Part shown: in pieces, positions 10,544 through 54,988 of the stretch
How the letters are laid out: the number at the start of each line of letters is the position of its first letter
Numbering within the stretch: the first letter of the stretch is position 1
Assembly: GCF_004010195.1 (NCBI RefSeq)
Contig: NC_057716.1
Location: forward strand, 22,879,293 to 22,943,292
DNA from: Chiloscyllium plagiosum
Taxonomy: Eukaryota
Direction of reading: 5' to 3'
DNA: 64,000 bases
Position numbers and translations under genes: made by a program
The notes under the pieces: generated by a model
Databases searched by the model: none
Seen by the model: the letters and a program-made list of their open reading frames with translations, nothing else
What the model was told of the DNA's origin: nothing

Positions 10544-11765
10544 GTCGAAAAGTATGGCGCTGGAAAAGCACATCAGGTCAAGCAGCATCCAAGGAACAGG
10601 AGAGTTGATGTTTCGGGCATAAGGAGAAAGTGAGGACTGCAGATGCTGGAGATCAGAGCTGAAAAATGTGTTGCTGGAAAAGCACAGCAGGTCAGGCAGC
10701 ATCCAAGGAGCAGGAGAATCGACGTTTTGGGCATAAGCCCTTCTTCAGGACTGACAGTGATAATCTGCAGTGACGTAGAAAGAACTAACGTAGACTCGTG
10801 ATGTGAAAATCTTGGAGAAAAGAGTATGGGAAGTGGCTCGCATAAGGGAGAGTTGGAGGGTTGGATCTAGGATGAGGGGGGGGAAGGAGGATGAGGTGGG
10901 GGAAGGGAGATGAGGAAACTAGTGAAATCACGCTGATGGCATGCAGTTGGAATGTCCCCAAGGTAGAAGGTGAGGCGTTCTTCCTTCATGCATCAGGTGG
11001 CCAGGATTTGAAGGTGGAAGAGGCCTATGACTTGCATGTCCATGGCAGAGTGGAAGGGGGAGTTGAAGTGGTCAACCACAGGGCAGTGGGGTTGTTTAGT
11101 GCGTGCGTCTCAGAGATGTTCTCTGAAACATTCCACAAGTTGATGTCATGTCTCCCCAGTGTAGAGGAGACCACATTGAGAGCAACAGGCACAGTAGATG
11201 AGGTTCGAGAGTATGTTGCTGGAAAAGCACAGTAGGTCAGGCAGCATCCAACGAGCAGGAGAATCGACTGAAGGACTCCGGTCTGAAATGTCAATTCTCC
11301 TGCTCCTCGGATGCTGCCTGACCTGCTGTGCTTTTCCAGCAACACACTCTCGACTCTGATCTCCAGCATCTTCAGACCTTACTTTCTCACAGTAGATGAG
11401 GTGTTTGGATATGCAGGAGAATCTCTGGCAGATGTGGAAGGATCCTTTGGAGCCTTGGATGGAGGTGAGGGGGAGGTGTGGGCGCAGGTTTTAAACCTCT
11501 TGTGGCAGCAAGGAAAGGTGCCAAGAGTGGAGAATGGGTTGGTGGGTGGGGTGGGGGAGTGGCGTGACCTAACAAGAGAGTAGCAGAGGGAATGGTCTCT
11601 GCGGAACACTGATAAGGGTAGGGTGTGAAATATATCTCTGGCAGTGGGGTCTGACTGTTGGTGGTGGAAATGGTGGAGGATGATGCATAGTATCTGGAAA
11701 TTGGTGGGGTGGAAGGTGAGAACCAGCGGGGGCGGGGGGGAGGAATTCTGTTCTATCTTCCTATG
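10544..11765 (-). mobile_element. 5'-truncated Penelope-like element (Neptune-type): linker and GIY-YIG remnant plus tandem pLTR/hammerhead modules, 16 bp TSD
   Basis: Minus-strand peptide PLVLTFHPTN...SDPTARDIF...FRRDHSL...GTFPCCHKRFKTC is typical of the Cys-containing Neptune linker, followed by a decayed GIY-YIG. Two pLTR-like units lie at 10544-10750. CTTCAAACCAGTTGGG flanks it directly at 10528-10543 and 11766-11781. Confidence 0.8.
11205..11387. mobile_element. Fold-back (inverted-arm) non-autonomous PLE-derived element nested in the PLE, 15 bp TSD
   Basis: TGTTGCTGGAAAAGCACAG..GGTCAGGCAGCATCC..GAGCAGGAGAAT is followed by its reverse complement and the tail ...ACTTTCT. CACAGTAGATGAGGT occurs at 11190-11204 and 11388-11402. 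Confidence 0.8.
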
Positions 11766-12008
11766 CTTCAAACCAGTTGGGTTACATAATCTGTTTTGAT
11801 CTAAACAGATATGTAGTTTTCAAGGTTTGCAGAGTGATTTTAAGTAGTTACAAGCCACTAGGATTTTGAAATCCAAAGTAACAAACAACATGAGCAGAAG
11901 TGATGCTTTTCCCACCAATTCAACTCTCCCAACAGCGGCTTTTTCTGCTTGACTGCGTGGGTGAATAGCCCAGAGTTTGAGAAGAGTCTGCTGTAATCAA
12001 ATACTTAC

Positions 12009-12113
12009 GTGCAAACTTGGATGATACGTCAAGATTCCATTATCACACAGCGTTACATATTTCTTCTTCCACTCTTTGTTCAGTGACTTCCCACTTCTCT
12101 TGAGTAACATACC
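12009..12113 (-). CDS. AGAP1: AGAP1 coding exon (105 bp; PH domain)
   Basis: tttcttttcatAG-type acceptor, then GGTATGTTA...AGTTTGCAC|GTaagtat. It translates [35 protein letters not shown] and continues in frame from ...AIPIKQ across a 42,875 bp intron. Confidence 0.97.
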
Positions 12114-12454
12114 CTATGAAAAAGAAACACGATAGTTTCAAGGGAGTGTGTAAGCGAGTTTGCATACTCCGAGTCTGTACTACATGGTGTCCATGGTTCT
12201 ATTTTGTGGTTATACAAATCAACTTCTGTTTTTTAAGTCTTGAAGTTCAAAGCCCAAATGTGTCTTTGGGTACAACTGCTCACCGCTAGAAACCGGGTCA
12301 GCATTCAGAAGAATGCCCAGTAGCAACGCCAGTGGCTGATCCTTTCCACACCTCCTCACCCAATAGCTGGGTTCACAGTTAGCATCAGCAAATTCTTCTC
12401 TAGCACATGGTGAAGGGGAAGAGATGAATAGAGATTTAAAAAAAAACTTCAACA

Positions 12455-13120
12455 ACATCAAAGCAAAATATCGCAAATTCTGGAAAAATTGAAATAAAGA
12501 GGAATTGCAACAAATATTCAGAAGGTCAGGAAGTATCTGTAGATGGATAAACAGAGTTAATGTTTCAGGTCCATGACCTTTCATCGGAACTGGAAGAGAA
12601 TTGAAATGAGCAATTGAAATGCGGGCAGGGTGGGAAGAACAAAGGGAAAGGTCTGCAGTAGAGTGAAAAGCAGGAAAGATTAAATGACAAAAGGGTTCAT
12701 GGTGTAAGGCCAAAGTGAAAGGCAATGGGCTAAGTAAGGAAACTAAAGGAGTCAAGAGTAGGAGTTATACAGGATCTTGAATAGTTGCTATTTGAAACAA
12801 AGAGGAAGAATTAAAAGAAAAACAAGAGAGAGAAAAACGCAGCAAAGAGAAAGGAAACAAACTGGGGACATGGGCTACAATCAAAAATTGTTGAAGTCGA
12901 TGTTGAATCTTGATGGTTATGAAGAGCACAATTGAGAAATGAGGTGCTGTTCCTGGAGCTTGCAGTGAACACAGCAGCAATTCAACAGCAGAAAGGTCAG
13001 AGGGGTAACAAGGAGGGAAATCGAAATGACAGGAGGCAGGAAATTCCGGTTGTGCTTATAGACTGAGGGAAATGTTCTGCATTGGGTGTCCCCAGCATAT
13101 AGGAGATCTTACTATGGTTA
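12455..13120 (-). mobile_element. Decayed Neptune-type PLE 3' end with pLTR
   Basis: Minus strand shows a GIY-YIG C-terminal remnant (GGAACAGCACCTCATTT...AACATCGACTTCAACAATTT), a pyrimidine-rich UTR and GTTCCGATGAAAGGTCATGGACCTGAAACATTAAC. Confidence 0.65.
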
Positions 13121-52539: not shown

Positions 52540-53160
52540 GCGATCGCATAAACAGACTTCCCATCTGCCATCAGCCATTTCCATGTCACCTTCTTTGAGC
52601 TCATTTGTACTTCATTAACTGCCATTGACTTAACAAGATTTATGCAAATGAGACCACAGGACCTTGCCAACTCCCACTGCAATCAAGTGATTATGTATGT
52701 ACGATTCTCCTGCTATGAAAAATTAATAAATGACAAGCCCAGTCAAGACAAAGCAGAGCCTCTTGTGATTTTTTTCTCCCTCTGCTTAGCTTTTAAAGCA
52801 TTTGCATGCTTCTTTAGAAAACATTGAGTTTGCTTTACATTGGAATTAATCAAAATCTTTCGCTAATTTACCTGAAAGCAGCTCTTTCAGTCATCGAGAA
52901 TAAATAAATACTTGTAATAAATCAATTTAGCTTACCTAACTGGAATTATTAGATAAATAACTGCAATAAGGCAGCTTGGCATGTTTCACATCTCAGCTTC
53001 TTGAATTCACACAGAAGAAATGATGCACCACTCTAATTAGTTATCACAAAAATCAAAGCTGGCCGACGTGGAGGTATTGGCCCACTAATCTAATATTGAT
53101 TGACATGGAATTTTCTGATAATCAACTGCAAATGACATCCTCAAGAAACTGGGATAGTGG
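52540..53160. promoter_or_regulatory. Putative conserved non-coding element
   Basis: Octamer ATGCAAAT (52642) and many TAAT/TAATTA and TGAC sites; no recognisable repeat. Inference only. Confidence 0.35.
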
Positions 53161-53389
53161 TAATCCTTCCATTAATGTTTCTGAATGAAAGTCAACATGG
53201 AGACAAGGATCTGGAGCAATACTGGAACACAAATATTAGACCATAGGAAGTCTGGATCATTTATAACAGGTACACCATAAGCCAGGAAGCACAGGCAACA
53301 CTGATTTACTAATTTTACAATGGCTATTCTAAACAGTTCAGAGTTCACTGTCATGGTTAGGAGAGCTCACCTGAATGCCTGAATCAGAT

Positions 53390-53579
53390 GTGGTGCTGGA
53401 AAAGCACAGCCAGTCAGGCAGCATCAGAGGAGCAAGAGAGTTGATGTTTTGAGCATGAGTTCTTAATCAGGATCATTGAATTGTTCCTTGGTCCTTGGAT
53501 GCTGCCTGACTGGCTGTGGTTTTCCAGCACCACACTTTTTGACTCTGATCTCAAGCATCTGCAGTCCTCACTTTCTCCA
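53390..53579. mobile_element. Fold-back PLE-derived element, 13 bp TSD (1 mismatch)
   Basis: An inverted copy with a decayed hammerhead is followed by a forward copy ending CACTTTCTCC. GCCTGAAT(C/T)AGAT occurs at 53377-53389 and 53580-53592. Confidence 0.8.
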
Positions 53580-54988
53580 GCCTGAATTAGATTCCAACCT
53601 ATAATGCACTCCCAGGCATTTACTGTTGGACATACAGACCACTCCAAACCCTTTGATTATGTTCAAGAGAAGTAATTAACTCCTGCATACCTGTTATAAG
53701 TTGCTAGCTTGCACTTTATTTTTGGGTGTCTATTATTGTACTGATTAATACATCGGTATACCACTCAAACACTCGATTAGATTTCAGCCTCTCACTCCTC
53801 ATATCTTATTATTTTATATATACACCTATATATCTAAACATATACCAACCGAAATTTTGAACAGATTTCAGCCAGTAACTCTTTCTGGGGGTCCATTATT
53901 CCCTATTGAAATAGGGAGAGTATGTCAGGATGCAGAAGGGTAGTATGGTTACTTTTGATGTAAATTTCCTAGCTGTCTTGTGTGCAGGATATTGAGTTAA
54001 CTGCAAAAGTTGCGATACAGGAAAAAGTATAAGTATTTCAGCTAGTGATTTGCCAATGCGAAAAAAAATCTAAAATTTAGATTTAAAAAGGAAAGAAAGA
54101 AACTTATTCTGTGAATTCCATTGTGAAAAACAAAACTCTCAGTGTGCTCTGTGCTTCATTCAGAGAAGAAACTCAATGAGACTCCACATGTCAAGCCAAC
54201 ATAAACCTAGAATGTCAATGTTACATTGCTTAAGACAACATTCAACTTCATTTTAAAAAGCAGGATTCAAAAAAGAAAAAGAAAATGATTCTGTCTGAAC
54301 AAACACCACATGACTGTCAAAATACCTTTTTTGCCTGATTGCATGGGGAAGATTGACACAAAGCCCACACTTGCAGCTGTCAAAAGAATTTCCCCATCCC
54401 CCATATTGAAGCAAGTAAGTTAATTTGCACATTAGTTGAGGGGTTACTGAAGCCTCTTCATTAGAGATTGCAAACAAGAGCAAATAGTCAGTGCACTGGC
54501 CATCGTTATCAGAACTAATTGCCTCAGCTTGGCAAGTGGAGGTAGTCGTGTTCAGATGTCCTCTTGCATTGGCAAATTGGGGCCAAGTCAAACAATATAC
54601 GAGATCACAAGAGTTCTGTTCAATGATCGGATTCAGACACTCGCCTATTTCAGTTCCAACCATGGCACTCCGACAAAGCTGGTCTTTGAAGCATTCCAAG
54701 CTGGAAGCACTCCATATGCAGATAGGGCTGCAGATTGCAGTTAATTAGACCCAGTTCTTAATACTTCCCACGGTGTCGCGAGCATCTTACTCTAATGATC
54801 TTACTTTAGCACGTTTAGGGCCCAGCTAATTGATGTCAAGTGTGCAACTTCTATGTTAATGAAATGGAAAGCATCAAATAAACAGAGAGAGGGGAAAAAA
54901 CAAGAGGCAGGTTACAGAGTTGAAACCATGTTGCTCCATGCCTCCAATTAAAAGGAGCAGTGGGGAGAAAGGGAAAACAGCACCTTAC

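Follow-up and report, generated by a model that had tools for sequence, protein, structure and literature searches.

Head-to-head insertions of Penelope-like pseudo-long terminal repeats in the genome of Chiloscyllium plagiosum: probable priming from both nicked target strands

A stretch of 64,000 nt from Chiloscyllium plagiosum (assembly GCF_004010195.1, contig NC_057716.1, positions 22,879,293 to 22,943,292 of the forward strand; hereafter the window) contains three head-to-head inserts (copies A, B, and C; Table 1), each framed by its own target-site duplication (TSD) and each with a different inner junction. These inserts are almost certainly insertions of the pseudo-long terminal repeat (pLTR) of a Penelope-like element (PLE). 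Reverse transcription primed by both nicked target strands, at the two internal start sites of the element, is the probable origin of each.

The coordinates that a preliminary description of the window had given for the three inserts were correct on re-examination, and the TSDs that it claimed were recovered at all three (Table 1). Module positions were numbered from the A of the ATG in helix II of the hammerhead motif (+1). As had been described, the two arms of each insert duplicate one sequence (64/72 columns matching in copy A, 53/53 plus a 3-nt gap in copy B, and 44/48 in copy C), and the inner junctions differ: the junction of copy A is near-blunt, that of copy B overlaps by 2 nt and includes a short altered stretch, and that of copy C holds an 11-nt spacer. 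The inverted arm of copy C extends approximately 30 nt further 5′ than its forward partner. A common tail, proposed for all three copies, is present, although it reads TACTTTCT rather than CACTTTCT in copy A and extends 10 element bases beyond CACTTTCTCC in copy B.

Table 1. Features of the three inserts and of the host gene in the window.
Feature	Coordinates	Strand	Basis or remarks
Copy A, left TSD (15 bp)	11190..11204	+	15/15 vs 11388-11402
Copy A, inverted tail-less pLTR arm	11205..11268	-	module about +12 to +78
Copy A, forward tailed pLTR arm, decayed hammerhead	11269..11387	+	module about -13 to +110
Copy A, right TSD	11388..11402	+	15/15 vs left TSD
Copy B, left TSD (14 bp)	33157..33170	+	14/14
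Copy B, inverted tail-less arm, 3-nt deletion, without hammerhead	33171..33229	-	module about +15/+20 to +76
Copy B, forward tailed arm	33228..33330	+	module +20 to +121; continuation matches element in L006, L010, L018
Copy B, right TSD	33331..33344	+	14/14
Copy C, left TSD (13 bp, one mismatch)	53377..53389	+	12/13
Copy C, inverted tail-less arm, decayed hammerhead	53390..53473	-	module about -15 to +69
Copy C, junction spacer (11 nt)	53474..53484	.	unassigned
Copy C, forward tailed arm	53485..53579	+	module about +18 to +111
Copy C, right TSD	53580..53592	+	12/13
Older 5′-truncated, broken PLE fragment (Cys linker and GIY-YIG region) hosting copy A	10900..11820 (limits approximate)	-	translation; paralogs ~80% identical; GIY-YIG Pfam matches in relatives
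Host-gene exon, PH domain of AGAP/centaurin-gamma-like gene	12009..12113	-	PDB 2rlo centaurin-gamma 1, E 3e-13; AG/GT borders
Likely preceding exon of AGAP-like gene	54989..55081	-	AG/GT borders

Judged from its sequence, the module appears to be the pLTR of an endonuclease-bearing, Neptune-like PLE. The PLE origin already claimed for it was borne out by longer copies, in which the module flanks the start of the open reading frame (ORF) and the GIY-YIG region: it stands before the ORF start and after the GIY-YIG 3′ region in loci L006, L227, and L231. This layout was pieced together from several broken copies, and an intact full-length parent was not recovered among the six fetched loci, all of which are deleted or broken. 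Relatives matched the GIY-YIG domain of Pfam above the cut-off (E = 7e-5 and 1e-4); the match to RVT_1 in decayed pieces of relatives was weak and below the cut-off (E = 7e-4). Pfam returned no PLE domain for the window's own broken frames or for the N-terminal reverse transcriptase (RT) piece of L227. Two cysteines lie between GIY and YIG in the translations of L231, L182, L174, and L040, and a Cys-rich linker (C-x4-C-x2-C) separates RT and endonuclease in many paralogs and in the fragment hosting copy A. An RT, a Cys-rich linker, and a GIY-YIG domain at the C-terminus that holds two cysteines between its GIY and YIG parts likewise characterize the Neptune clade, and a zinc-finger-like Cys motif is common to the Neptune and Nematis clades (PMC8557442). 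The likeness is one of domain features, and these fit Neptune or Nematis.

The minimal hammerhead core was intact in 54/128 sampled arms spanning it and in none of copies A, B, and C, where it is absent or decayed. The module hammerhead fits the description in PMC4209133 of minimal hammerhead motifs in pLTRs, pairs of which lie on opposite strands 100-700 bp apart; Rfam at the gathering threshold gave 0 matches. A stop follows the helix II ATG; the start of the ORF seems to lie further downstream. At the tailed end (module +95 to +114, window 33305-33323), a pyrimidine tract followed by AG resembles a 3′ splice site upstream of where the ORF begins; the Penelope pLTR contains an intron in its 5′ untranslated region (PMC8557442).

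The frequency of such inserts was estimated from 120 evenly spaced 10-kb stretches of the 35 largest contigs (1,144,535 non-N bases). The 251 arms found there formed 53 head-to-head pairs, 5 tandem pairs, and 1 tail-to-tail pair, and 136 arms were unpaired. The density of 46 head-to-head pairs per Mb, a lower bound for large contigs that misses pairs with very short arms, corresponds to 2.96 expected pairs per 64 kb. The three inserts in the window are thus no local cluster but the genome average, in agreement with the earlier suggestion that this is a routine outcome of integration. With a constant rate over the 3.56-Gb genome, approximately 165,000 pairs would be expected (Poisson range, about 120,000-210,000).

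A TSD (score of at least 9) was found in 37/53 sampled pairs and in 1/106 mismatched flank pairs used as the control. TSD length was 11-17 bp in 33 of these 37 pairs, with an overall spread of 10-25 bp. That these are true duplications was confirmed at paralogous empty sites, which carry the sequence once. In the paralogous hosts of copy A, the 15 bp occur once with the flanks abutting, within 3 bp in 33/36 rows; the other three rows are cross-pairings in loci that also gave offset 0, and two rows represent one place. Six of the 40 TSD-bearing pairs were checkable in this way, being inserted in repeats with paralogs in the sampled data, and five showed a single TSD copy; for the sixth, one paralog lay at -6. 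The flanks of one young copy (L117) are themselves a high-copy repeat. The preliminary description had also called for empty sites in related species. Copy B is present in a related species (~4% diverged), and this comparison therefore yielded no empty allele; because contigs of the second species cross from unique flank into both arms, it did exclude an assembly artefact.

The outer ends of the inserts followed a fixed pattern. One tailed arm (ending near +111) was joined to one tail-less arm (ending at +66 to +80) in 48/53 pairs; four pairs were without a tail and one had two tails. The tail was approximately 35 nt long (26-43 nt in 32 of 37 pairs). Non-inverted copies with a TSD ended at either site (7/48 tail-less solos, one of the seven from a sister family, and 10/61 tailed solos, one of the ten hiding a short inverted arm), which suggests that each end can prime alone. 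In vitro, a PLE of the green anole cuts both target strands and extends them, and on its sense RNA reverse transcription begins at two internal sites that bracket the tail (PMC11167929). At the tail-less end, the match between the 3′ end of the target and the element averaged 1.7 nt, compared with 0.5 nt in the control (24/37 pairs scorable). TSDs were found in 35/49 pairs and 14/73 short solos (15/18 and 4/14, respectively, at 92% identity or more), a contrast inflated because some short solos continue upstream into subfamily sequence that the references lack, or conceal a short inverted arm. Higher TSD retention in pairs would be expected if both 3′ overhangs were extended.

The inner ends were compared in 37 pairs aligned locally to a panel of subfamilies. 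The tail-less arm reached at least 5 nt further 5′ in 19 pairs, the class to which copy C belongs, the tailed arm did so in 10, and the two were level within 4 nt in 8 (about five rows of this set look mis-assigned). The arms of L096 do not overlap at all, and this pair has an 11/11 TSD; overlap judged by eye was absent or barely present in L050, L090, and L111, for which a TSD was not established. Across the sample and other loci, 5′ ends peaked at -15 to -21 (104/346 arms). The predicted ribozyme cut (+15) was ruled out as the template's 5′ end, with only 2/346 arms beginning there. In partial tandems (L010, L217, L218, L224, and others in L196-L225), the downstream pLTR restarts at approximately -17/-18 after a piece of the ORF start, a restart consistent with run-off at the RNA 5′ end and a template jump after it.

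The two arms of a pair shared subfamily variants. Arm-arm distance was below the median distance to other loci in 24 of 27 pairs (10 pairs with fewer than 30 shared positions were excluded), and rare variants were common to both arms in 6/63 cases, compared with 1.5 expected (window pairs included). Co-folding of two hammerhead copies did not give an active dimer as the minimum-energy fold and thus lent no support to ribozyme dimers holding two templates together.

Taken together, the evidence favours two target-primed complementary DNAs (cDNAs), one per nicked strand and joined at their inner ends, as the source of the end products described. The GIY-YIG endonuclease would introduce staggered nicks 11-17 bp apart. 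One 3′-OH would prime at the downstream start site and the other at the upstream site, aided by a 1-4-nt match. Both cDNAs would extend toward the RNA 5′ end (likely at about -15 to -21) or halt early. Short complementarity between the two same-sense cDNA ends, or the addition of a few bases, would allow their joining, and fill-in would then yield a palindrome that has its tail on one side only and retains both TSD copies in full. Both reverse transcriptases may read a single RNA, with strand displacement, or each may have a pLTR copy of its own (in a tandem transcript or a dimer). We lean toward the view that the inverted pLTR with its one-sided tail arises directly from double target-primed reverse transcription, with both starts either on a single RNA or on separate pLTR copies within one transcript. 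The preliminary description had reasoned that duplicated arms need either a template with the unit present twice or snap-back copying. The second alternative is weakened by the greater reach of the tail-less arm in roughly half of the pairs, and a twice-present template is not required, a few pairs being non-overlapping as in L1 twin priming, although two pLTR copies may still have served.

Several points weigh against double priming. The evidence is end-point anatomy throughout, without an observed insertion intermediate. Palindromes shed central bases after insertion, and such losses could produce the asymmetry in 5′ reach from snap-back products. The 19/10/8 reach count depends on the local alignments with their apparently mis-assigned rows, the TSD contrast is inflated as described, and target microhomology is also compatible with end-joining. 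Only 17/109 solos yielded a TSD. An arm was closer to its partner than to the nearest other locus in only 1/27 pairs, and a single template molecule is therefore not demonstrated. The in vitro work, finally, concerns a Poseidon element, which belongs to another clade.

The best-surviving alternative, snap-back, is unlikely on present evidence. A tailed, target-primed cDNA would fold and copy itself, stop or be cut near +75, and join the other target end, with central deletions following later. The subfamily variants shared by the arms, the excess of head-to-head over tail-to-tail pairs (53 vs 1), the near-perfect central palindrome of L094, and the 1-4-nt overlaps at 12/37 junctions all agree with such a course. 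However, a copy of the tailed cDNA cannot exceed its template in the 5′ direction, nor can the tailed arm be a copy of the tail-less arm, so that secondary deletions would be required in approximately 19/37 pairs as well as in non-overlapping pairs such as L096. Nor does snap-back account for the TSD-bearing, non-inverted copies whose ends lie at the same tail-less site. Among L093, L094, L054, L097, and L126, two pairs share a central CATG, and three have short duplicated arm pieces at the junction, suggesting repeated template jumps.

Self-priming of an antisense transcript, the published hypothesis for head-to-head junctions (PMC3846280), would build the palindrome before integration, after which the endonuclease trims one end and leaves the tail; PMC8557442 likewise attributes the tail to endonuclease-mediated resolution. 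We consider this quite improbable here. Head-to-head orientation is the rule and some junctions are palindromic, as this hypothesis would have it, but most junctions are asymmetric, in either direction, the anole study places the tail between two RT start sites on the sense RNA (PMC11167929), and TSD-bearing solos end at both sites.

A ready-made hairpin (a MITE-like or SINE-like master; miniature inverted-repeat transposable element or short interspersed element) copied as a unit is very improbable. The 37 pairs had 35 distinct junction coordinates, and the exact 29-nt junction of copy B occurs at 2 places in the 3.56-Gb genome, with different outer ends and TSDs; the MITE master was rejected on these grounds, which accords with the de novo formation proposed earlier. 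Some junctions do recur (an AGG overlap in three sampled pairs, a TTC overlap in two, and the central junction of copy B or near variants of it in L012, L015, L022, and L024). The AGG junction, however, recurs in different subfamily variants, and a few recurring short-overlap junctions of this kind fit microhomology hot spots. TSD length is not constant (10-25 bp), and since the tail is one-sided the true ends lack terminal inverted repeats. An inverted pair made by two separate insertions at one site, or by rearrangement of a single pLTR at a later time, can be dismissed: the family is dense enough (251 arms in 1.14 Mb) for chance neighbours to occur, but a single TSD frames both arms, the orientation is strongly biased, the arms match in subfamily, and the one-tailed pattern is fixed.

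All three inserts lie in introns of the AGAP-like gene, copy A after the PH exon and copies B and C before it, and fold in silico beyond shuffled sequences, in line with the intronic hairpins that had been postulated (z-scores of -15.5, -13.8, and -8.6 for the RNA hairpins of A, B, and C; 0/200 shuffles as stable for each copy). The likely preceding exon was located with a short motif of AGAP proteins, and the two exons are presumably consecutive. The arms had been put forward as possible ADAR or Dicer substrates; the RNA reads examined for editing lay entirely within the repeat, derived from other family copies, and were not assignable to copy B. Over the 37 pairs, the arms differed at 192/2405 columns, which indicates ordinary decay. 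In all likelihood the inserts were dead on arrival and are neutral.

Five further module arms lie in the window outside such pairs. Unpaired arms of the same family as copies A-C occur at 49246-49335 (tail-less) and 58854-58976 (tailed), with no TSD found; an intact hammerhead core is present at 49335. On the minus strand at 10540-10790, a tailed pLTR arm is followed directly by a tail-less arm in a partial tandem. A sister pLTR family has left an older head-to-head pair at 55404-55748, with arms 199 nt apart and no TSD found; an arm related to it lies at 7302-7362. A second PLE family forms a head-to-head insertion at 38840-39500, with its own hammerhead motif at 39418; a TSD was looked for at this insertion and none was found. 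It matches the family with an RT in L133 (RVT_1, E = 9e-8), and the head-to-head layout is repeated in L052, L104, and L115, which suggests that head-to-head behaviour is common to two PLE families in this genome. The window also holds another inverted or dispersed repeat (7930-8337) and SINE-like repeats that are 85-90% alike (25584-25784, 34486-34752, and 44239-44550). In L229, ORFs resembling those of an LTR retroelement or retrovirus (gag, protease, and integrase-like; about 3100-6700) lie beside a PLE stub.

Among known systems, MITEs are similarly short, non-coding, high in copy number, and hairpin-like; the inserts described here differ in lacking a shared master and terminal inverted repeats and in having TSDs of 10-25 bp rather than of a fixed short length. 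In L1 twin priming, both target strands prime cDNA, and the product has an inverted 5′ part, one TSD, and microhomology at the joint. Its arms are non-overlapping and its second primer site is variable, whereas here the arms mostly overlap (by 50-70 nt in copies A, B, and C) and the second end is fixed.

Tandem retrozymes have been linked to pLTRs (bioRxiv 10.64898/2026.07.22.740005). Animal non-LTR retrozymes of this kind are pLTR- and hammerhead-derived, short, non-coding, and present in high copy number, as are the inserts reported here, which differ in forming no tandem arrays and, in copies A, B, and C, in having no intact hammerhead core. Poseidon_Ac of the green anole (PMC11167929) resembles the present family in its pLTR hammerhead, in the two ends that bracket the tail, and in the similar spacing between the predicted ribozyme cut and the start site downstream of it (about 97 nt in the present family and 85-92 nt in Poseidon_Ac). 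It belongs to another clade, the main text of that paper gives no account of inverted arms, and in the present family the helix II ATG is followed by a stop, with the ORF apparently starting further down.

An inverted pLTR with a tail has been published for endonuclease-bearing PLEs (PMC3846280, PMC8557442, and PMC8969392). The published examples share with the present inserts an inverted 5′-truncated copy beside a forward pLTR, head-to-head, a one-ended tail of 30-40 bp, a TSD around the whole unit, and partial tandems. The units described here are mostly pLTR only (110-310 bp) and reach about 46 per Mb, and their TSDs are longer than those of the rotifer examples (11-17 bp vs 8-10 bp). The layout is thus already known, and copies A, B, and C add a further case of the published PLE type. 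In the literature searched, with partial coverage of subscription papers and without supplements, a two-primer model of PLE inversions was not found, nor, again with partial coverage and without Repbase or Dfam, was a description of this PLE family in sharks. The route by which PLEs acquire the inverted layout is called undefined in PMC8557442, and later integration steps were left unvalidated in PMC11167929. For annotation, PLE stubs of this kind can be mistaken for MITEs. If double priming is true, that step would be recorded in minimal form approximately 165,000 times in this genome, a number sufficient for a statistical decision, and the inserts would place a 50-90-bp hairpin about every 20 kb of intron. 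With approximately 10^5 short, TSD-framed examples, the competing models can be put to the test by counts, the first of which speak for two primed cDNAs rather than snap-back.

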